Source: Planctomycetota bacterium
Lineage (GTDB): Bacteria; Planctomycetota; B15-G4; SIAN01
Length of the DNA: 64,000 nt
Assembly (NCBI GenBank): GCA_031409275.1
Contig: JANNXA010000043.1
Span: 17,106 to 81,105, forward strand
Direction: 5' to 3'
This document shows positions 19,670-40,440 of this stretch, piece after piece. The translations under genes were made by a program, and so were the position numbers. The notes beneath the pieces are model-generated. The model was not told the origin of the DNA, ran no database searches, and worked only from the letters and a program-made list of their open reading frames with translations. The first letter of the stretch is position 1. Each line of letters opens with the position of its first letter.

Positions 19670-20545
19670 ATGACGAGCGGAATCCTGGTGCGTTGGTGCA
19701 GTTGGATCGTGGCAGCGGCGGTTTCTGCCAATGGGGTGACGATGGGGCAGGGCGCGCCCGCGGCGACTGCGCCAGCGCAGGGCAAGCCCGCCGGCACCAC
19801 CGGCGTCCTCTCCGAAGAGGAGTTCGCCAAGCTCCACACGCTGAAGGCCGAGGAAGCGCCCGCGCCGCTCGGGACGATGGTCGATCTCGCGGATGGCACC
19901 AAGGGCTACCTCGCGCTGCCGGAAGGTTGGAAGCCGGGCGGGCCGGCGATGGTGGTGATCCACGAGTGGTGGGGACTCAACTCCCACATCAAGCACTGGG
20001 CTGATCGCTTCACCGCCACGGGTCGCGCCGCGCTCGCCGTCGATCTCTATGGCGGACAGGTGGCGAGCGCTCCGAAGGACGCCATGGCGATGATGCGCGC
20101 AGTCGACGAGAAGAAGGCCGTCGCCACGATGTTGTCGGGACTCGCGTTCCTGAAAGAGGATGCGCGCGTCAAGGCGGGCAAGTGCGGCTCGATCGGCTGG
20201 TGCTTCGGCGGCGGCATGTCGCTGCAGCTCGCGCTGCATGCGCCGACGCTCGACGCGGCGGTGATGTACTACGGCAAGCCGGTCACCGATGCCGCCGAAC
20301 TGAAGCAGCTGAAGGCGCCGTTGCTCGGCATCTTCGGCGAGCGTGATGCCGCCTTCCCGCCCGCGTTGATCGAGCAGTTCAAGGCGGGGCTGACCACGGC
20401 GGGCGCTGCCGGCGCGATCCATCTGTTCCCGGCGGATCACGCTTTCGCCAACCCGTCCGGCGCGAAGTACGACGCCAAGGCGGCCGCGGCGGCATGGGCG
20501 AAGGTGCAGGCCTTCCTCGACGACAAGCTGCCAGTCGTGAAGTGA
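19670..20545 (+). CDS. Dienelactone hydrolase family protein (exported)
   Basis: IHEWWGLN, GWCFGGG, DHAFANPSG; GAGGAG RBS. Confidence 0.93.
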   Translation: MTSGILVRWCSWIVAAAVSANGVTMGQGAPAATAPAQGKPAGTTGVLSEEEFAKLHTLKAEEAPAPLGTMVDLADGTKGYLALPEGWKPGGPAMVVIHEWWGLNSHIKHWADRFTATGRAALAVDLYGGQVASAPKDAMAMMRAVDEKKAVATMLSGLAFLKEDARVKAGKCGSIGWCFGGGMSLQLALHAPTLDAAVMYYGKPVTDAAELKQLKAPLLGIFGERDAAFPPALIEQFKAGLTTAGAAGAIHLFPADHAFANPSGAKYDAKAAAAAWAKVQAFLDDKLPVVK

Positions 20546-29833: not shown

Positions 29834-31906
29834 ATGGAGCCGCAATCGGATCGCGCGTCGCGGCGCGGCACGCTGCTCGTGCTGGCGCTGATGGCGGCGT
29901 TGCTGCTGCTCGCGGCCGGGGCGTGGTGGTGGTTGCGAGTGGCGAGCGCGAAGCCGCGTTCCGGCTCGCCGACGATCGTCGGAGTGGGCGCGGCGTCGGG
30001 CCGCGGTCGCGACGCCCGCGCGAACTCGGCGGCGGATGACGCAAGCGCAGGGCATGGCGGCTCGTTGACGAGCGCCGACGCGCTCTCGGCGCGGCGCGCT
30101 GCCGAGACCTTCGATCCGTTGGCGACGCCGGCGCCGTCCGAGATCGATGGAGTGGAGCGCGAAGGGAAGGCGCTCTTCTGGGGACGCGTGTTGGCGCCCG
30201 ACGGCTCGCCGTGTGCCGGCGCGACGCTGTGGCACGACGGCGTCATCTCTGGAACCAGCGACGAGCAAGGCCACTACCGTCTGGTCGTCGCGCAACGAAC
30301 CTGGGATTCAGGGCGCACCAGCAACCAAGGGTTCGAGCATTGGCTCCACGCGCGCAAGGAAGGCGTGGGGGTGACGCAGGCGTGGTGCGGTCGCTGCAGC
30401 GGCCGCTGCGATCTGCGGCTCGATCCTGGCTACGCGGTGGCGGGTCGCGTCGTCGCGCGTGGGAGCGGGGCGCCGCTGTCCGGAATTGTCGTCGAGTACC
30501 ATCTACCGCTCGTCGCGCCGACCGGCGCGTTGCGCCGCTTGCTTCCGCTGCGCACGGTGAGCGATGAAGCTGGTGCCTTTCGCTTCCAGACGCTGATGGG
30601 GTCGCGCTTCGCGTTGCGGGCGAGCGGCGCGGAGTGGGCGTCGGATGGGTGGTTCGAATTCGACGTCGATCCGAAGCGCGGCCGCGACCGCCTCGACTTC
30701 GAGCTCGAGCCGCGACTGATCGCGAAGGGTTGGTTCACGCCCTGGCCGCCTCTCGGTTTCCCGCCGGCTGCGGCGCTCGACGCACGCGTCGTCGCGCTGG
30801 CGGCCGGTGGCCAGGCGATCGCGGACGAGCCGGACGCGACACGAGTCGCGGACGATGGCTCCTTTGCGCTGCGCTTCGCCGCCACTGGCACGCTCGAACT
30901 GCGGCTGCAAGTGGCCGATGACTCGCCCTGGAGCTGCCGGATCGACCTGCCGTGGGAGCCGACGCCGGTCGATCTCGGTCGCATCGAACTCCCCGCTCCC
31001 GCGCGCGTGACCGGGCGGGTCGCACTGCCGGCGGAGCTGCTCGAACTGGGCTTCGAGTTCGTCGTCGTGCAACCGACTCTGGCGGCGCCGCGCATCGTGC
31101 GAGTCGCGCTGGACGCGCAAGGCCGTTTCACCTCGCCCCCGCTGGCGAATGGCGGCTTCCTGCACGGAGTCGTGCTGGGTGATGAGCTGGCGATCGCGGG
31201 GACGTTGGCGAACTTCGCGCCGCGCAGCGGCATCGCGGTGGGCGATGGCGAGGCGCAGCCGCCGCTGGCCGCCGGCGAGACGCGCGACCTCGGGACGCTG
31301 GCGCCGCCGGGGCCGCTGCTGGCGGGCCGGTTGACGCTCGCCGACGGCAGCGCCGCGTTCAATGCGATCGTCGAGCTGGCGTGGGACGTCGAGGACGCAG
31401 GGGATTCGTTCGCGACGCTCGCCGACGCTGCGGGGCGCTACGTGATCGGCCGACGCCTCGGCTTCGAACCCGAAGAGCTCGCGGCGATCGCGAAGGGAAA
31501 CGGGCGCATCGTCGCCCATCACCACGCGGAGCGCGGACGCTCGCAACCGCTGCCGGCGCTCACCGCCGGTGGATCGATGCGCGTGGATGTTGCGCTCGAT
31601 CGCGGCGCAGCGGCCAGCGGCCGCGTCGTCGATGCGCAGGGTGCGCCGCTGGCGGGCGCGCGCTTCCTCTTCTTCCCGGTCGGATGGACCGGGGGGCGGT
31701 CGCAGGAGCGCGTGGCTTGGAGCGATGCAGAGGGGCGCTTCAAGGTCGCAGGGCTCGCGCCGGCCGGCTACTTCGTCATTCGCGATCTGCTCGAAGGCGA
31801 CGGCGAGGAGGGCACCTCGATGGAGTCGTTTGGCCTGTTCGGCCAGTTCACGGCGCCGGCGAGCGACCTCGAGTTGCGTCCGCTCCAGGGCGATCGGGAG
31901 GAGTGA
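29834..31906 (+). CDS. Membrane-anchored carboxypeptidase-regulatory-like repeat protein
   Basis: N-terminal TM; repeated GRVV..G.PL.G / SD..G.F units. Confidence 0.75.
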   Translation: MEPQSDRASRRGTLLVLALMAALLLLAAGAWWWLRVASAKPRSGSPTIVGVGAASGRGRDARANSAADDASAGHGGSLTSADALSARRAAETFDPLATPAPSEIDGVEREGKALFWGRVLAPDGSPCAGATLWHDGVISGTSDEQGHYRLVVAQRTWDSGRTSNQGFEHWLHARKEGVGVTQAWCGRCSGRCDLRLDPGYAVAGRVVARGSGAPLSGIVVEYHLPLVAPTGALRRLLPLRTVSDEAGAFRFQTLMGSRFALRASGAEWASDGWFEFDVDPKRGRDRLDFELEPRLIAKGWFTPWPPLGFPPAAALDARVVALAAGGQAIADEPDATRVADDGSFALRFAATGTLELRLQVADDSPWSCRIDLPWEPTPVDLGRIELPAPARVTGRVALPAELLELGFEFVVVQPTLAAPRIVRVALDAQGRFTSPPLANGGFLHGVVLGDELAIAGTLANFAPRSGIAVGDGEAQPPLAAGETRDLGTLAPPGPLLAGRLTLADGSAAFNAIVELAWDVEDAGDSFATLADAAGRYVIGRRLGFEPEELAAIAKGNGRIVAHHHAERGRSQPLPALTAGGSMRVDVALDRGAAASGRVVDAQGAPLAGARFLFFPVGWTGGRSQERVAWSDAEGRFKVAGLAPAGYFVIRDLLEGDGEEGTSMESFGLFGQFTAPASDLELRPLQGDREE

Positions 31907-33777
31907 CGCGGCGCGCCGCGGCGCTCACCTCCGCCAGGAGTCGCGCGAAGTCGATCGGCTTCTCCAGCAACGGAAAAGCGCGCCGCTGGATGAAGCGAGC
32001 CACTTCGGGGGCGACCACGTCGCCGGTGATCGCGATGGCACGCGTGGCGAGCTCCGGCCAGCGCGATTGCACGCGCTCGAGCAGCTCGATGCCGCTCATG
32101 CCGGGCATGCGCAGGTCGGTCACCAGCACGTCGATCGGCTCGGTCGAATCGAGCAGGGCCAACGCCGCGGCGCTGTTCTCGGCCTCGCGAATCACGAAGC
32201 CGTGGCCGCTGAGATAGCGGCGCAGCAGTTCGCGGACCGGCGCCTCGTCGTCGACGAGGAGCACGCGTGGCGAAGGCGGCTCGACGCGCGGAGCATCGCG
32301 GGAGGGAGGCTCGATGGCTGCGGTGTGCGCGGGGGTGGCCGCAAGCTGGCCATCGCGGCGGGCGAGATCCGTCGACTCGCCCACCGGCAGTCGCACGACG
32401 AAGCAGGCGCCGCGACCGCCGTCGATGCGCGTCGAGGTCGTGATCGAGCCGCCGTGCGCCCGCACGATGCGTTGCGAGATCGCCAGGCCCAGCCCCGCGC
32501 TTCGCTGCGCGGACTTCGTGGTGAAGAACGGATCGAAGACGCGCTCGCGCAGCGCGGCTGCAACGCCGGGGCCATCGTCGCTGCAACGAAGGAGCACGTG
32601 TTGCGGACCGTCGCGGAGCGCCTCGATCTCGATGTGTCCATCCGGTGGCAGCGCTTCGAGCGAGTTGGCGAGGAGGTTGGCGATCACCTGCTCGAGCCCG
32701 GTGGCGTCGGCATGGATCTTCGGCAGGTCGGCAGCGAGTTGCGTCGTCACCGTCACGCGCGTGCGCGCGAGCTGCGGACCGATGTCGCGCTTCACCCGTG
32801 CCACGACTTGCGCGATCGACACCGGCGCGTAGCTCACGTGGCGCTGGCGCGTGATGTCGAGCAGGCCGCGCACGATGGTGCTGCATCGTTGCGACTGCTC
32901 GATGATGGTGCGCGCGGGCTGGCGCAGATCGTCGGAGAGGCGAGGATCGAAGTCAGCGGGTTGTTGAGCTCATGTGCGACGCCTGAGACGAGGACGCCGA
33001 GCGCTTCGAGCTTCTCCGATTCGGCGAGACGGCGGTGCAATGCCGCTCGTTCGGCCCGCGCATCCTCCGCTTCGTGCTCGACCCGCTGGAAGACGGTGAT
33101 CAAGAGCGCCACGGCGAGCGCCGTCTGCATCAGCAGGTCGATGAACGAGTTGTAGTGGGCGAGCCCCCAGATGAACGAGGCCAAGAACTCGGACTGGAAC
33201 CGGATCGAACCGAAGGAGATGGCGTAGAGCACCCACAGCAGCGCGAGCAGCGCGAACACGATGCTCGCGGCGCGCGAGCCGAAGCTGCGCCACTGCGCGG
33301 GAGCGCGCGCCAGGTAGAGGGCGGCCATCGTGCAGCACACGGCTGCAAATGGAGCCTGCAGCGCCATGGCCGAGTTGAGCTGCGGGGAGAGGAGCGGGGT
33401 CGCGGCCGCGCTGAGGCAGAAGGCGCCGGCGACGAGCGGCGTGGCGCGCGGCAGCGGCTTGCCGACGTAGCGCGCCACGCCGGTCAGCAGCCCACCGAAG
33501 TAGGCGAGCTTGCTCAACTGGTAGACGACGTCGAACGGCACACGCAGCCACGAAGGACCCCACAACGTGCCGGGCGGCGGCAGTTCGAGCACCTGGTAGC
33601 GCGTGAAGACCGTGACCAGCGCGACACCGAGCGCGCCGAACGCGACGCTCCAATCGCGCAGGTAGCGATGGCTCGAAGCAAGGCGGCGCAGCGCGACGAA
33701 CGTGCCCGCCAACAGCAGCGGGCGACGGTTTGGACCGAGATCCCGATGAACGAGAGCCGAGCGTCTTCGAGGTTCAC
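31848..33777 (-). pseudogene. Membrane hybrid histidine kinase with two frameshifts (pseudogene or assembly indels)
   Basis: Three frames join: GTG 33777 VNLEDARLSFIGISVQTVA, shift ~33721, LLLAGTF..GVAHELNNPLTSIL, shift ~32940, LSDDLRQPARTIIEQSQRCSTIVRGLL..HATPase..REC. Confidence 0.85.
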
Positions 33778-33865
33778 GCGAGGTGTCGTCCTACGGCCGG
33801 TCGCGGATGCGGGCGATGCTAGCATCGCTCGTTGCGCGCGCCGGGCGTCGCCAAGGAGCAATGAG

Positions 33866-35299
33866 ATGACGCTGTGGCTTTCGTGCCTGCTCGCCGTGCA
33901 TGTCGGATCCGCCAGCGAAGGCCAGACGGATCGCTACCGCCCGCTTGGTGTGAATGCGCAGGGGATGGCGCTCTTCGAGCGGCCGCGCGACGGTGCGCGA
34001 GTGGTCTGGATCCCGGCCGGCTCGTTCAAGATGAACGGCTACTTCCCGCGCCCGACCAGCGAGCCCGAGCATGAGTGGGTCTGGGTCGACGGCTACGCGA
34101 TCGACGAGACCGAAGTGACCAATCGTCAGTTCGCGGCGTTCCTGAATGCCACCAAGATCGAGAGCGATGCCGACGGCCATCCCCTGCTGGTCGAAGTCGA
34201 GCATGGGCTCGAGCAGGTCGATGGCCTCTGGCGGCCAAAGCTCGGCTGCGAACAACTGCCCGCGCTCGGCGTCACCGGCTTCGGCGCGATCGCCTTTGCG
34301 CGCTTCGTCGGCGGTGATCTACCGCTGCTGCCGGAATGGCAGAAGGCCGCGGGCGGCTTCGAGGGGCGCATCTTTCCTTGGGGCAGCGAGGAGCCTGACG
34401 CGACGCGCGCGAACTTCCGTCGCTTCGGTCCCGACCTGCCGATGCCAGTGAAGAGCTACCCCGCTGGAGTGAGTCCGTTCGGCTGCTACGACATGGCGGG
34501 CAACGTCTACGAGCGTGTCTACTCGGGTCGGGGTCGCGGCGGCAGCGCCGGGGCGCCCGCGATGATCCGCGGCGGGAGCTGGGCGTCGCCCCATCCGCTC
34601 AATCTGCGCACCTTCGACCTGTGCATGCAACCGCTCGAGGTGGGCGACCGCACGGTCGGCTTCCGTTGCGTGGTACGCAGCGGCGCCGGCTTGCCGGTGG
34701 CGCCAAGCGACCCGCTGCGCATGGCGCGGCACTGGGACGCCGCGCTGCGCGAGGCGCGCGAGCGCAACGTGCCGATCCTTCTTTCGCTGCAGTACGACAC
34801 CTGCGGCCAGTGCGATCGCACGAAGGTCGGTCTCTTCCGTGATCCGGAGTTCATCCGCGGCTGCAATGCCGGCGCGGTGCTGGTGGTGGGCCACGTCGCG
34901 CACGACGGCGCCGACGATCCGCATCCCGAGGACGCGAGCGGACGCTGCACGCTCTACCCGCAGCTCGAATGCATGGAGCACATCGACCTCTTCTACGAGG
35001 GGATCAAGCGAGTCGACGGCTTCCGCGTGTCGCCCGGCAACTTCCTCCTCGATCCGCGTGCCGACGACGCTTCCCGCAATCGCGACGATTGGGTCCTGGT
35101 CGACGAGGCGATGCTGCCGAAGTCGGGCGTCGGCACCGAGGCGTACCTCGACGCGATCGCGGAGGCGCAGACGATGCTCGGTGCGCCGAAGCTCACTCAC
35201 GAAGAGTGGGTGGCGATCGACGCGGCGCGACCGAAGGCGGAGCCGGAAGACGCTGGCGACGAGGCAGCGGACGATGACGATGACGATCAAGATCGGTGA
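33866..35299 (+). CDS. FGE/SUMF1-like domain fused to a thioredoxin-like CxxC domain, acidic tail
   Basis: TEVTNRQF, EWQKAAGG, FPWG, YDMAGNVYE, RGGSW, GFRC; then WDAALREARERNVPILL..CGQC. Confidence 0.85.
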   Translation: MTLWLSCLLAVHVGSASEGQTDRYRPLGVNAQGMALFERPRDGARVVWIPAGSFKMNGYFPRPTSEPEHEWVWVDGYAIDETEVTNRQFAAFLNATKIESDADGHPLLVEVEHGLEQVDGLWRPKLGCEQLPALGVTGFGAIAFARFVGGDLPLLPEWQKAAGGFEGRIFPWGSEEPDATRANFRRFGPDLPMPVKSYPAGVSPFGCYDMAGNVYERVYSGRGRGGSAGAPAMIRGGSWASPHPLNLRTFDLCMQPLEVGDRTVGFRCVVRSGAGLPVAPSDPLRMARHWDAALREARERNVPILLSLQYDTCGQCDRTKVGLFRDPEFIRGCNAGAVLVVGHVAHDGADDPHPEDASGRCTLYPQLECMEHIDLFYEGIKRVDGFRVSPGNFLLDPRADDASRNRDDWVLVDEAMLPKSGVGTEAYLDAIAEAQTMLGAPKLTHEEWVAIDAARPKAEPEDAGDEAADDDDDDQDR

Positions 35300-35482: not shown

Positions 35483-36472
35483 TCAGCTGCCGACGAGTTC
35501 CGCCATGTGCTTGGCGCGCTTGCCGGCGCGCGTCTCGCCGAACTTCTCGCCGAAGGCGTTCAGCGCCTTCACGACGGCCGCATCGAGGCCGTCCTTGGCG
35601 ATGCGCTTCTCGAGCTTCTCGAGCTGCTTGGCCGCTTCGCGCTCGGGAGCCATCTCCTTGGCGGTCAGCTTGCTGCTCAGCTCGGTCAGCTTCGTCGCCA
35701 GTTCGTGGCCCGCGAGCCCCTTCGCCAGCGTCGCCGCCAGCTTGTCCGCCTGCTCGAACTCGGCCGACTCGATCAGCCAATCGAGCCGCGCGAGCTTCGC
35801 CTTCGCGCGCACGGCGAGCTTGCCGGAGAGTTTGTCGGCCGCGTCCTTCTCGACGCCATCGGGGACCGCTTCGAGCGACTTGATGGCCGCCGCGAAGTTG
35901 CCCTTCTCGAAGTCCACCCACGCGGCTCGGCAGAGCGGTCCGAGATCGCTGGGGCCCTTCTTGGCGAGCTTCAACTGCTCCTTCAGCGCTTCCTCGATGG
36001 CCGTGTGCGCCGAGAGCGGGTTGTCATTGATCAGGACTTCACCGTCGTTGCTGAGCACGACGCAGTGCGGGATCCCGCCGGCGCCGGTCTCGAACGGCGG
36101 CTCGCACGTCCAGATGGCGGCGTCGCTGAACCACTTCTTCTGCAGGACGAACTTCTCCATGTCCTTGGCCGAAGCGCCCTGCGACTCGATGAAGAGGAAC
36201 TGCACGTCGTCGCCGTACTCTTCTTGCATCTTGATGGCCAGCGGCACGGCTGACCCGACACAAGGTCCTCAGCGAGTTCCCCAGAACTCCACGACGACCG
36301 GCCGCCCTTGCAGGTCGGCCAGGCTCTTCACGCCGCGGCCGTTCACCAGTGGCTGTTGCCAAGTGTAGCTCTGTTTGGCGCCGACTTTGGCGACGCCTTG
36401 CGCCACCGCAGTGCTGCCGGCCGTCAGGACGACGGCGGCCGCTGCGAAGCGCAACGTGCTCACGAACGACAT
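35483..36472 (-). CDS. Probable selenoprotein: exported TlpA/redoxin-like UxxC domain plus helical C-terminus (329 aa, UGA at codon 68)
   Basis: GAGGGAG RBS, signal peptide, SLADLQGRPVVVEFWGTR-TGA(36269-36271)-GPCVGSAVP in frame with ORF 35483..36247. Confidence 0.87.
36236..36255 (-). other. Candidate bacterial SECIS hairpin
   Basis: GGUCAGC-CGUGCC-GCUGGCC, 7-bp stem with one G-U, starting 13 nt after the UGA. Confidence 0.65.
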
Positions 36473-36718
36473 GTCTTCGATCTCCCTCTGGAAACAGGCG
36501 GAGCGGTGGGTCCACCCCGCCGCGGAACTGTGTGCACGGTTGGGACGCACGCTCGGAACCGAGGGCCCCTGTTTCATGGCCGCGGTCGGAAGTGCGTGGC
36601 GCCGGTTTACCGTTTCGTCTTCGGTACGACTGCAACGGAGATGAGGAGCGTCATTTCCAAGTCATCTGGCGTGCGGATTCGCCGCTTCGGGCGCCGCGCG
36701 TCGCTCGACTGCCGCGAC

Positions 36719-36754
36719 CTCGATCACTTCTTGACGCTCGATCACTTCTTGATG
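36719..36754. repeat. 18-bp tandem duplication
   Basis: CTCGATCACTTCTTGACG / CTCGATCACTTCTTGATG covering the stop of the VWA gene. Confidence 0.75.
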
Positions 36755-38292
36755 AACGTCGCCTGGCCGCTGTTCTGCTTCGCGAGCGCCTTGATGAAGT
36801 TCTCGACCGTCTGCGCGCCGATGCCGACGGCGTGGATGGTGATGCGGCGCGTCTCGTTCCACTTCTTCACCTCGGCGAGGATCTCCTCGCAGTCGGTGGT
36901 ACGGCCGCAGGTGGGGCCGCCATCGGAGAGGAAGAGGATCGTGTCGCCGGTCGTGGCGTAGTACTTGTCCTTGGTCGAGAGCGGGGCCAGTCGGAACGCC
37001 GTCTCGAGCGCGTCGAAGATGTTGGTCTGGCCCACCGCCGCGAGGCCGTCGAGCCACTCACCGACCTTCTTCTTGTTGTCGGCCGTCGCCATCACGTTGC
37101 GGTCGTTCCACGGGATCACGACGTCGCTGTAGGCGATGACGTTGAAGCTCGCCTCGGGCGGCAGCCCCTGGATCGACGCCTTCACCTCGCGGCGCGCGAG
37201 GTCGATGCGCGACTTGCCGGGCTCGGGGGTGAGATTCTCGTAGTCGTCGACGGCGGCAAGCATCGAGCCGGAAATGTCGACGACGTAGACCACCTTCAGC
37301 GAGTCGAACTTGATGTGGAAGAAGTCGGCGTACTTGCCGCTCTCCTTGGTGACCTGCGCCGGCTGCGTGACGTCGATGCCGCGCGGCTCGAACGTCGTGC
37401 GCGCCTTCTGCCACCAATCGACCCATGCCGCTGGCGTCTTCCCGAACTTCTGGCCGGTGATCTGCTCGAGCCGCCCGCACAGGTCGGCGAGCGGCTTGCC
37501 CGTTTCCTTCGCCGTCTGATTCACCAGCATCTCGAGCGCCGTGCGATCGCCGATTCGCGCGAGCGCGTCGACCGCGATCGACCGTTCCTGCCATTCCGGT
37601 CCGCGCAGCAGCGGCGCGAGCGCGCCCGGTGGGATGAACTCCGGGCGCTGTTTCAGCAGTGCCGCGGCCACGGCGAGCCGCACCTCGACCACCGGATCGT
37701 CGAGCAACCCGATCAGGTGCTCGGCCACCTTGCCGTGGTCGATGCGCCCCAGCACTTCGAGCAGCACCAGCCGCAGCCGCTCCGGCTTCTTCGGTGGCGC
37801 CGCCATCAGGTACTCGAGCGTCTCCTCGCGCTTGCACTTCGCGAAGGCGTCGACGTAGCCGCGCACCGCTTTCTCTTCGTAGCCGATGCGTGCGCCGAGC
37901 ACCTTCTGGTCGAGCTGCAGTTCCTCGACGCCGGAGTAATTGGGCTTCGCCCCTTTGCCGCCCTTCTCGATCTGCGCCTTCAGGATCTTCTCGAGCTTGC
38001 CGTCGACTTCGTCGCGCTCCGCGGCGAACTCGTCGAGCTTCACGAGGGTCGCGGTGAGGAACTCCATCAGCAGCTTCGCGGTGCCGACGGTGTCGTAGAA
38101 GGCGACGTTCTCGATGGCGGCCAGCCGCTTCTCGATCTCGGCGCCGGGCGCGAGCTCCTTGCGGTAGCGCTTCACGTCGTCGGCGGGCGGCGCCGATTGG
38201 CAGCGGCCGAGCGGCGGGGCGACGGCCAGCGTCGCCAGCGCGGCAACGACGGCGTGAACCAGGAGGAGCGGTCGCGAGGTGGGGAGGCGCAT
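36742..38292 (-). CDS. HEAT-repeat + VWA domain protein (exported)
   Basis: Signal peptide; HEAT repeats; MIDAS VVDISGSM, GQTN, FLSDGGP. Confidence 0.9.
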   Translation of the reverse strand: MRLPTSRPLLLVHAVVAALATLAVAPPLGRCQSAPPADDVKRYRKELAPGAEIEKRLAAIENVAFYDTVGTAKLLMEFLTATLVKLDEFAAERDEVDGKLEKILKAQIEKGGKGAKPNYSGVEELQLDQKVLGARIGYEEKAVRGYVDAFAKCKREETLEYLMAAPPKKPERLRLVLLEVLGRIDHGKVAEHLIGLLDDPVVEVRLAVAAALLKQRPEFIPPGALAPLLRGPEWQERSIAVDALARIGDRTALEMLVNQTAKETGKPLADLCGRLEQITGQKFGKTPAAWVDWWQKARTTFEPRGIDVTQPAQVTKESGKYADFFHIKFDSLKVVYVVDISGSMLAAVDDYENLTPEPGKSRIDLARREVKASIQGLPPEASFNVIAYSDVVIPWNDRNVMATADNKKKVGEWLDGLAAVGQTNIFDALETAFRLAPLSTKDKYYATTGDTILFLSDGGPTCGRTTDCEEILAEVKKWNETRRITIHAVGIGAQTVENFIKALAKQNSGQATFIKK

Positions 38293-38442
38293 GGCGGGTG
38301 CTCGAGGGGACCTTTGGCCCGCAAGATAGGCGGTGCGCGCGGTCGCTGCAGCAGCGGGCGGCGCCACCGCCGTTGAGCGGCTCGTTGCTGCCAGCTACAA
38401 ACGTCGGCCCTTTCCTGTCACGCGAAGCGCGGAGCGCCTGTC

Positions 38443-40440
38443 ATGAGCAGCACCGATTCCCACGGCCACGACGACCACGGTCACGGCGGCGGCCACGGTC
38501 ACGACAGCCACGACGAAGCTCCCGCCGGACCGCCGACCGATTGGGCGAAGGTGCGCAACGTCGGCGCCATCGTGCTGATGCTGCTGGTCGTCGTCATCCT
38601 CGGCACGCTCGTCTCCTGCACCCACCCCGAGGCCGATGCGCAAGTCGCGGCGCGTCAGCAGGCGGAGTCCGCGCAGAAGGGCTTCTCCATGGCGCGACTC
38701 GCCGAGGCCGACTCCTTCCTCGCGGCCTACCAGAGCGAGTACCAGAAGCTCTACGCCGCGGCCAACGAGGCGGAATGGCTCTCGAACACCCACATCGTCG
38801 AGGGCGACGATCGCAACGCGAAGAACTCCGACGCCACGAAGTCGGCGCTCGCGGCGTTCACCGGCAGCGAGCGGGTGATCACCCGTTGCCGTGAGCTGCT
38901 GGCCGACGAGTCGCGCCTCGCTCCGGTGCAGGTGCGGCAGCTCAAGGCGATCCTCTACCTCGCGGGCGACAAGCCGGCCATCGCCAAGGAGCTCGTCGAT
39001 CAACGCATCGCCGCCGAGACGCGCCAGACCGAGGCGCTGTTCGGCTACACGTTCCACCTCGACGGCAAGGAGGTCACGGTCAACGACCTCGATCGCGTCC
39101 TGCGCGAGGAGAAGGACCTGACCAAGCGGCAGGCGGCGTGGGAGGCCAGCAAGGCGGTCGGCAGCACCCTGAAAGATGGGCTCGCCAACCTGCAGCGGCT
39201 GCGCAACAGCACGGTGCGCGCGCTCGGCTACTCCGACTTCTTCAGCTACCAGGTCTCCGAATACGGGATGACCACCGACGAGATGCTCGCGCTGAACGAC
39301 CTCGCGCTGAAGCAGCTGCGACCGCTCTATCGCGAGCTGCACACCTGGGCGCGGCACGAGCTGGCGAAGCGCTACGGAGTGCCGGTGCCCGACATGATCC
39401 CGGCGCATTGGCTGCCCAACCGCTGGAGCCAGGACTGGAACGCGCTGGTCGACGTCGAGGGGGTGAACCTCGATGCCGCGCTCGCCGACAAGACGCCGCA
39501 GTGGCAGGTCGAGCAGGCGGAACGCTTCTACGTGAGCCTCGGCTTCGAGAAGCTGCCCGCCATCTTCTGGGAGAAGTCGTCGCTCTACCCGGCGCCCGAA
39601 GGCGCGGGCTGGAAGAAGAACAACCACGCTTCCGCGTGGCACATGGACCTCGACCACGACGTGCGCTCGCTGATGAGCGTCGAGAGCAACTCCGAGTGGT
39701 ACGAGACGACGCACCACGAACTCGGCCACATCTACTACTACCTCTCCTACTCCAACCCGAAGGTCCCCTTGATCCTGCGTTCCGGTGCGAACCGCGCCTA
39801 CCACGAGGCGGTCGGCACGATGATGGGGCTCGCTGCGATGCAGCCGCGCTTCATGGCGGCGGTCGGCCTCACGCCGGACGGCAAGGCGCCGGTGCTGAGC
39901 GACGAAACCAAGCGCCAGCTCCTGATGCGCGATGCGCTGAACTACCTCGTCTTCATGCCGTGGAGCTCCGGCGTGATGACCCACTTCGAGCAGGAGCTCT
40001 ACGGCAAGGAACTGCCCAAGGAGAAGTGGAACCAGCGCTGGTGGGAGCTGGTGGCGAAGTACCAGGGAGTGGTTCCGCCGACGGCGCGCGGCGAGGAGTT
40101 CTGCGACGCTGCCACCAAGACGCACATCAACGACGACGCGGCCCAGTACTACGACTACGGCCTCTCCTTCCTGCTGCTGTTCCAGCTCCACGACCACATC
40201 GCGCGCAACCTGCTGCACGAGGATCCGCACGACACCAACTACTACGGCCGCAAGGAGGTCGGCGACTTCCTGAAGCGGATCCTGGCACCGGGCGCGAGCG
40301 TCGACTGGCGCCAGCTGATGCGCGACTCGATCGGCGAAGAGCTCTCCGCCGGCGCGATGCTGCGCTACTTCGAGCCGCTGATGGAGTGGTTGAAGAAGGA
40401 AAACTCCGGCCGTACCTGCACGCTGCCTGAACTGAACTGA
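38443..40440 (+). CDS. M2 family metallopeptidase (ACE/peptidyl-dipeptidase A-like)
   Basis: IPAHWL, FWEKS, HASAW, HHELGH, GANRAYHEAVG, YFEPLMEWL. Confidence 0.95.
   Translation: MSSTDSHGHDDHGHGGGHGHDSHDEAPAGPPTDWAKVRNVGAIVLMLLVVVILGTLVSCTHPEADAQVAARQQAESAQKGFSMARLAEADSFLAAYQSEYQKLYAAANEAEWLSNTHIVEGDDRNAKNSDATKSALAAFTGSERVITRCRELLADESRLAPVQVRQLKAILYLAGDKPAIAKELVDQRIAAETRQTEALFGYTFHLDGKEVTVNDLDRVLREEKDLTKRQAAWEASKAVGSTLKDGLANLQRLRNSTVRALGYSDFFSYQVSEYGMTTDEMLALNDLALKQLRPLYRELHTWARHELAKRYGVPVPDMIPAHWLPNRWSQDWNALVDVEGVNLDAALADKTPQWQVEQAERFYVSLGFEKLPAIFWEKSSLYPAPEGAGWKKNNHASAWHMDLDHDVRSLMSVESNSEWYETTHHELGHIYYYLSYSNPKVPLILRSGANRAYHEAVGTMMGLAAMQPRFMAAVGLTPDGKAPVLSDETKRQLLMRDALNYLVFMPWSSGVMTHFEQELYGKELPKEKWNQRWWELVAKYQGVVPPTARGEEFCDAATKTHINDDAAQYYDYGLSFLLLFQLHDHIARNLLHEDPHDTNYYGRKEVGDFLKRILAPGASVDWRQLMRDSIGEELSAGAMLRYFEPLMEWLKKENSGRTCTLPELN

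Follow-up and report, generated by a model that had tools for sequence, protein, structure and literature searches.

Introduction

Selenoproteins with a UxxC motif in a redoxin domain are already known, and are catalogued under "Redoxin family" and "Thiol-disulfide isomerase-like" in Table 1 of PMC13188914; in the excerpt of that article, Planctomycetota are not mentioned. Dataset S1 of a 2008 marine survey (GOS; PMC2398784, seen as an excerpt) contains two partial reads with FWGTR-U-GGC, followed by SVP and with a signal peptide, which we compared by eye with one of our loci (L147). Going by the order of the file, these reads fall under "Trx-like 1" and "Trx-like 2", one in each. Excerpts of two further sources report candidate thioredoxin-like selenoproteins, split in the annotation, from a planctomycete (PMC4807772) and exported selenoproteins of other families (bioRxiv 2022.07.06.499078). 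BSepDB, with 57,630 entries according to PMC13326102, may also hold the family described below. Our literature searches gave no description of a full-length family that combines a redoxin with a helical domain.

The gene that was the focus of this study is located on the minus strand of a 64,000-nucleotide stretch of planctomycetotal DNA, which was analysed as a whole and is referred to as the window. It belongs to the already catalogued kind of UxxC redoxin selenoproteins, and does not represent a new kind of system; the modest additions are the full-length architecture and likely Sec-to-Cys reversions with hairpin loss. With the catalogued selenoproteins it shares a hairpin within the gene and a redoxin/TlpA-type fold in which UxxC occupies the attacking position, whereas the Dataset S1 entries, as far as the excerpt extends, are partial reads in broad classes, without the 150-aa helical domain, the Planctomycetota range, or the hairpin covariation.

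With ResA, TlpA, and CcmG (DsbE) (3gl3, 1st9, 1jfu, 2b1k, 3eyt, and 28db), the window protein shares the extended thioredoxin fold, [C/U]xxC after strand 1, a conserved proline, and an export signal (by our own hydropathy heuristic). It differs from them in Sec for the first Cys, in its signal peptide (predicted to be cleaved, no anchor being apparent), in WG instead of WA before the motif, and in the added helical domain; unlike CcmG/DsbE, the gene had no ccm neighbours among the flanking ORFs scanned. CnoX/YbbN (3qou and 3qdn; excerpt of PMC6282202) likewise combines an N-terminal thioredoxin fold with a C-terminal helical domain, which is of TPR type there and weakly TPR-like in the window protein, and occurs in redox-active and redox-dead variants, as does the present family with a paralog on contig C10. 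However, CnoX works with cytoplasmic DnaK/GroEL, whereas the window protein carries Sec in a TlpA-type domain and begins with a signal peptide. Instead of a cytoplasmic protein with no signal peptide, a hydrophobic N-terminal leader was found family-wide, and the whole-chain superposition with CnoX/YbbN was poor (TM 0.24-0.25); the relation is one of analogy, not membership.

Results and Discussion

A single reading frame interrupted by TGA

The host genome (G000; 5.59 Mb, 69% GC, 93% complete) carries the window on contig C43. ORFs 36269..36577 and 35483..36247 on the window minus strand had been described in the initial annotation as one frame separated by TGA alone, and this was confirmed, the TGA at 36271-36269 being all that divides them. 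Read-through from ATG 36472 gives 329 amino acids, with codon 68 as the sole internal TGA in the motif FWGTR-U-GPC. This ATG is preceded at 9 nt by a ribosome-binding-like GGGAG motif, and a 67-aa fragment in the public protein set (P0072) begins at the same codon; ATG 36577 is probably not the true start. The gene itself ends at TGA 35485-35483, in the same place as its homologs. Scans for promoters and terminators gave nothing exceeding the chance level. The two annotated fragments likely belong to a single enzyme, predicted to be exported, to handle disulfides, and to end in a helical tail (Table 1).

Table 1. Features of the UxxC redoxin gene in the window (all on the minus strand)
Feature	Position	Strand	Remarks
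Whole gene	35483..36472	-	329 codons and stop; codon 68 is the single internal TGA; homologs align over the full length across the TGA
Likely ribosome-binding site AGAGGGAG	36482..36489	-	9 nt before ATG 36472; putative role, from sequence
Predicted cleavable signal peptide, residues 1-24	36401..36472	-	Ends in AVA, no lipobox Cys; n/h/AxA layout by eye
TlpA/ResA-like thioredoxin-fold domain, residues ~25-172	35957..36400	-	pLDDT 95; best structural match 3eyt_A
TGA codon 68, putative selenocysteine at the attacking position of UxxC	36269..36271	-	40 distinct members: 32 TGA, 8 TGC
Cys71, putative resolving cysteine	36260..36262	-	Cys in 37/37 full-length rows
Pro135 (GIPH), expected cis-proline position of the thioredoxin fold	36068..36070	-	37/37 rows
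All-helical C-terminal domain, residues ~179-328	35486..35938	-	Seven helices in the model; weakly TPR/YfiO-like, no conserved Cys
bSECIS-type hairpin	36223..36264	-	Fold -18.8 kcal/mol; upper-stem covariation in TGA genes only
Hairpin upper stem, 7 bp	36255-36249 with 36242-36236	-	14-33 nt behind the TGA
Hairpin loop CGUGCC	36248-36243	-	20 nt after the TGA
Hairpin predicted lower stem	36264-36257 with 36230-36223	-	Fold prediction from the window sequence alone

Family members and the residue at codon 68

Matches at E 0.001 were obtained in 53 of 61 related genomes, mostly to distant redoxins. A profile constructed from the 14 closest genes detected the family in 11/42 genomes of the class (E 1e-45) and 27/401 genomes of the phylum (E 1e-35). 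The 44 loci were reduced to 40 distinct genes, 5 duplicates and 2 matches without the motif being removed; 3 of the 8 Cys genes came from a metagenome scan, the pattern of which required Cys at codon 68 and was blind to TGA genes. A further 18 more distant loci (L022-L039) were excluded from the hairpin tests; one of these, L035 (genome G034), has Ser at codon 68. No longer fused form was present among 7996 candidates of 593-2000 aa, which is weak evidence.

In tblastn (33 rows from 30 loci), the aligned codon 68 was TGA in 20 rows, TGC in 11, and TCG in one, with one gap; in the core family, TGA was found in 32 genes and TGC in 8. Neither TAA nor TAG occurred at this codon in the 33 rows or the 40 core genes. 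The pairing of Cys with TGA that the initial annotation proposed to look for at codon 68 was thus seen. The same TGA recurred across several families of Planctomycetota, and contigs of three runs (X3, X5, and X6, the latter two from other studies) spanned codon 68 with no listed difference; this speaks against a base-call error. The TGA is accordingly not unique to one strain. An in-frame UGA aligned with the Cys of homologs, together with conservation on both flanks, is the mark of a selenoprotein gene, and both were found here.

The genes selA, selB, selC, and selD, which had been named for checking, were all present, giving a complete Sec machinery: selA (484 bits), selB (334), selD (338), and tRNA-Sec (76) scored above the curated cut-offs, and ARAGORN reported tRNA-SeC(tca). 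The host selD contains one TGA, which comes with a strong hairpin; selA and selD are adjacent (C40:252211-254558, minus strand). All 11 carriers from the class search and all 23 further carriers had selA. This co-occurrence is weak evidence because selA was already present in 288 of the 401 Planctomycetota genomes sampled, several of which had two copies. It is very likely, judging from the sequence comparisons, that TGA at codon 68 is decoded as selenocysteine, and the proposal that this is a selenoprotein gene was supported by the Sec machinery, the TGA in 32 distinct genes, and the covarying hairpin described below.

Hairpin downstream of the TGA

According to the legend of Fig. 2A in PMC13188914 (excerpt), a bSECIS has a loop of 3-9 nt with G at loop position 1-2, a distance of 16-37 nt from UGA, and an MFE of -7.5 or lower. 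The window hairpin (loop CGUGCC, spacing 20, 7-bp upper stem, -12 to -18.8 kcal/mol) lies within these limits. The rules were passed by 32/32 TGA genes and 6/8 Cys genes, and also by 104 of 192 random in-frame positions (54%); they were rejected as a test, being nearly uninformative in GC-rich DNA. Taken by itself, the window hairpin gave z values of -0.6 to -1.7 in four windows, below significance. The hairpin after the TGA noted in the initial annotation exists and is insignificant alone; it was accepted because of the covariation in TGA genes, and not because of the single-sequence fold.

Covariation was analysed in the 31 TGA genes that align without gaps (the 32nd carries a codon deletion and was set aside); the rows are related. 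In the upper stem, 80.6% of 217 cells were paired, with double changes at all seven pairs, and the covariation value (0.585) was reached by 0/500 shuffles; slid registers were 33-54% paired. The same stem in the 8 Cys genes was paired in 37.5% of 56 cells, a value reached by 273/500 shuffles and corresponding to the chance level. RNAalifold, unprompted, recovered five of the upper-stem pairs, and a bulged, shifted register was found in 7 of the 31 TGA genes. Folding was better than the mean of the gene's own synonymous recodings in 31/32 TGA genes and 5/8 Cys genes. The paired changes alter the protein: the residues flanking VP co-vary (SA/L, SA/Q, SS/T, TS/M, GS/A, and HA/H).

The unusual A/T-ending codons reported after the TGA were only partly borne out. 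In the window, A or T is the third base of 4 of the 6 codons that follow the TGA, vs 7.8% downstream (binomial P ~5e-4, for a stretch picked post hoc), and also of codons 65-66, before the TGA; across the family, the frequency was clearly raised at +1 (10/32) and +2 (15/32) only, vs 16%.

Redoxin domain with a predicted export signal

The signal peptide claimed in the initial annotation was upheld by the layout of the N-terminus, read by eye, and by a hydrophobic leader in the matching region of 40/40 members (our own heuristic, an 11-residue mean Kyte-Doolittle value of at least 1.5, applied without a background). A structure prediction from the single sequence was discarded (pLDDT 52); the model of the mature protein from a 76-row alignment had a pLDDT of 95 and a pTM of 0.90. 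Structural matches included 3eyt_A (Z 16.9, rmsd 2.3, 138 aligned) and 3gl3_A (Z 16.1), and profile matches of the redoxin domain included 28db_A (E 2.5e-17) and 2lja_A (E 3.9e-16); model residues 4-152 served as the query in the wide structural search. TlpA/ResA/DsbE-type structures were at the top of both fold searches. The read-through sequence, the fold model, and the structural match agree that the TGA is located on the attacking-Cys position of a TlpA/ResA-like redoxin, as originally proposed.

U/C68, C71, P77, and P135 were invariant in 37 full-length rows. The residue after U/C68 was Pro in 8/8 Cys genes and Gly in 26/32 TGA genes, and 15/32 TGA genes had the thioredoxin-type dipeptide GP; the codon after the TGA started with G or C in all 32. 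A link between Cys and a following Pro did not reach significance, with 3 independent pairs only (p 0.25). The window protein is not filed under PF08534, NF002854, or NF047696 because it scored below their curated cut-offs: 22.1 vs 26.6 bits (Redoxin), 23.3 vs 170 (ResA), and 18 vs 230 (TlpA), respectively. No NCBIfam model fitted it above the cut-off. NF041382 (VPGUxxT) and NF041054 (WAxxUGC) gave weak matches in 8/76 and 2/76 rows, respectively, and none for the window protein, from which both motifs are absent.

Helical tail

Residues ~179-328 were all helix in the model (pLDDT 95), in agreement with the helical tail of ~150 aa described previously. No conserved Cys was found in the tail in 37 full-length rows, and the window tail had no Pfam match at E 0.1. 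TPR families of Pfam matched at most 2/76 rows each, and the YbgF model matched 4/76. The sequence search with the tail returned 2r5s alone (E 0.013), which we take to be the TPR part of a YbbN-type protein. In Foldseek, the YbbN chains 3qou and 3qdn had E values <1e-3, but an rmsd >22 at the low TM scores given above, and Atlas matches to the tail had TM <0.5 except for the family's own fragments. On contig C10 of the same genome (plus strand, near base 20,400), a paralog shows this tail together with a redoxin-like domain and a signal peptide, yet lacks any active-site Cys; retention of the architecture without this residue suggests a non-redox (binding) use.

Evolution of Sec and Cys forms

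In a tree of 37 members, from which codon 68 and the next 12 residues were masked, the Sec/Cys state required four changes (4-4 over bootstrap trees), and the starred branches forced three of these changes. A single Cys clade was rejected (AU p 0.001). With the midpoint root, a Sec ancestor took four steps and a Cys ancestor six; Cys ancestry was favoured only when a loss was weighted four times as heavily as a gain, and then requires 12 gains. In a quick, unfinished tree with 8 distant outgroups, Sec and Cys were mixed in the outgroup as well. All genomes with Cys copies had selA. These results suggested that four Sec-to-Cys reversions with hairpin loss are likely. Since section 10 of PMC13188914 (excerpt) calls Sec-to-Cys changes in bacteria rare and mainly found in FdhA and SelD, and Table 1 of PMC1794560 (excerpt) also lists some for FrhD and HesB-like proteins, the likely reversions in the family of the window gene are a mild exception and not the first.

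Sec and Cys versions were found side by side in one genome twice (L011 and L137): in G004 (C34:18191-20475), the adjoining copies are divergent, and in G300 (C342), they are in tandem; the hairpin register is missing from the Cys copy in both. Because Sec and Cys versions share clades, with and without the hairpin, they provide a clean natural test set for the bacterial SECIS. In a third genome (G045), the TGA copy (L146, C8:56936-57895) has a further in-frame TAA, and a Cys copy on another contig (C125) is intact; the additional TAA may have arisen through an error in assembly or because the Sec copy is decaying.

Proposed mechanism and alternative explanations

From sequence and model, we consider it probable that the gene encodes a Sec-decoded, exported TlpA/ResA-like reductase of 329 aa, likely recharged by DsbD and with a tail predicted to hold clients; beyond the description "exported thiol-disulfide oxidoreductase", the function is inferred. 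SelB with Sec-tRNA would almost certainly bind the hairpin and insert Sec. Planctomycetota have a periplasm, to which the predicted signal peptide would very probably direct the protein before being cleaved. In thioredoxin-fold enzymes, the first residue attacks and the second Cys resolves; by analogy of fold, there is good reason to expect that Sec68 would attack the disulfide of the substrate and Cys71 resolve it, leaving a Se-S bond. This bond may then be re-reduced by DsbD, which bears its own UxxC here, a step that we regard as somewhat favoured. Binding or holding of clients by the helical domain, as in a chaperedoxin, is put forward with only slightly more belief than doubt.

In the host DsbD, the Trx domain that accompanies DsbD_N and DsbD_TM contains FTGFT-U-INC; the protein is likely a selenoprotein itself, as far as its sequence indicates. 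DsbD_N had no match in the genome search, but scored 25.9 bits (cut-off 25) when the DsbD protein was scanned directly. The DsbD gene, on the minus strand of contig C51, has its TGA at 106506 (L148:2235-4787); the N-terminal part contains two CxxxxC-type repeats, and the UxxC is followed by a hairpin. The link between the family and DsbD consists of co-presence in one genome only. Six more TlpA-like genes of the host have TGA in UxxC, and one has Cys; the former are at C16:170423 (+), C7:112758 (-), C7:86341 (-), C9:117722 (+), C47:5887 (+), and C23:26950 (+). The gene on C16 has the same layout of signal peptide, redoxin, and helical tail, with a Cys-rich C-terminal end. A scheme that joins all of these elements would have a Sec-bearing DsbD feed several Sec TlpA-like enzymes as a periplasmic relay of Planctomycetota, with the family acting as a Sec chaperedoxin that holds misfolded clients, Sec being ancestral and reverting four times to Cys, each time with SECIS decay and contrary to the trend reported for bacteria, and with base pairs of the SECIS dictating two residues of the active-site helix; as a whole, this is speculative and rather doubtful.

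A selenoprotein acting as a DsbA/DsbC-like periplasmic oxidase or isomerase, instead of a DsbD-fed reductase, appears unlikely. Neither the DsbA nor the DsbB family was detected in the host genome (93% complete), so that the role may be open, and the dipeptide of all eight Cys forms begins with Pro, as in oxidising CPxC enzymes; an extra client-binding domain would also fit an isomerase. However, the nearest structures are of the ResA/CcmG/DsbE/TlpA type, the proteins of which are mostly reductases, the thioredoxin-type GP is present in nearly half of the TGA genes (see above), and a reoxidising partner was not found in the host genome. It is even less probable that the selenoprotein mainly removes peroxide or sulfenic acid in the envelope (peroxidase-like or feeding MsrA), the tail serving for localisation: against weak AhpC-TSA matches in 17/76 aligned sequences, Z scores of 12-14 for peroxiredoxin and GPx folds, and COX1-family oxidases in the host genome, TlpA-type structures scored higher (Z 14-17), no msr or prx gene occurred in the 61 flanking ORFs scanned, and the motif is UxxC, not the PxxxTxxU given for peroxiredoxin in the excerpt of PMC13188914.

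The public gene calls hold two pieces, as would be expected if the TGA were a true stop (a nonsense mutation, a split gene, or a base-call error) and the locus a pseudogene or two proteins. We consider this very improbable: the catalytic motif would be halved, the same TGA is present in 32 distinct genes of several families with no TAA or TAG at the codon, it is spanned by contigs of the three runs with no listed difference, and hairpin covariation is confined to TGA-bearing genes. A G or C after the TGA may weaken termination, and the 32/32 genes with such a base are compatible with leaky readthrough; this, or a general reading of TGA as Trp, Gly, or Cys under an alternative code, is scarcely credible, since the gene itself terminates at a TGA where its homologs end, the aligned residue of homologs is Cys only, and the only TCA-anticodon tRNA listed is tRNA-SeC (58 tRNAs, in an incomplete genome). 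Decoding as Sec in a reductase of the TlpA/ResA type is the reading that we prefer.

Database entries and genomic neighbourhood

Among database matches of near-full length, 58 of 62 lacked the motif and were downstream pieces, and 29 of 38 short matches ended at the residue before codon 68; in the Atlas, a 57-member cluster of 252-aa pieces is named "hypothetical protein". The family goes unseen in name searches because most entries consist of a pair of "hypothetical" fragments, divided at the Sec codon. Read-through thus corrects a systematic annotation error, by which a full-length family is mostly stored cut in two, and the phylum-wide frequency of selA (288/401 sampled) points to wide use of Sec in Planctomycetota, exported redox proteins included.

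No operon was conserved beyond the genus or family; vWA-HEAT, FGE-sulfatase-Trx, peptidase M2, and histidine kinase genes recur in close relatives only, and the neighbourhood points to no pathway. No ccm family was detected in 61 of the 82 flanking ORFs, the number scanned (flanks of 1.5-4 kb). A convergent gene at window 33842-35299 (+), with an FGE-sulfatase domain and a thioredoxin-like domain containing CxxC, adjoins the redoxin gene in 4/4 genomes of the same genus. Upstream on the same strand, 36742-38367 (-) encodes a probably exported protein, to judge by its leader, with HEAT repeats and a von Willebrand A domain; the gene is adjacent or near in same-genus genomes. Peptidase M2 (angiotensin-converting-enzyme family) with a His-rich N-terminus is encoded at 38443-40440 (+), and is near the gene in some relatives of the genus or family. 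The region 31848-33712 (-) corresponds to a membrane histidine kinase with a receiver domain, in overlapping ORFs 32834-33712 and 31848-32873 in different frames; this split would reflect a frameshift or an assembly error, and the counterpart in a relative is one ORF of 714 aa.
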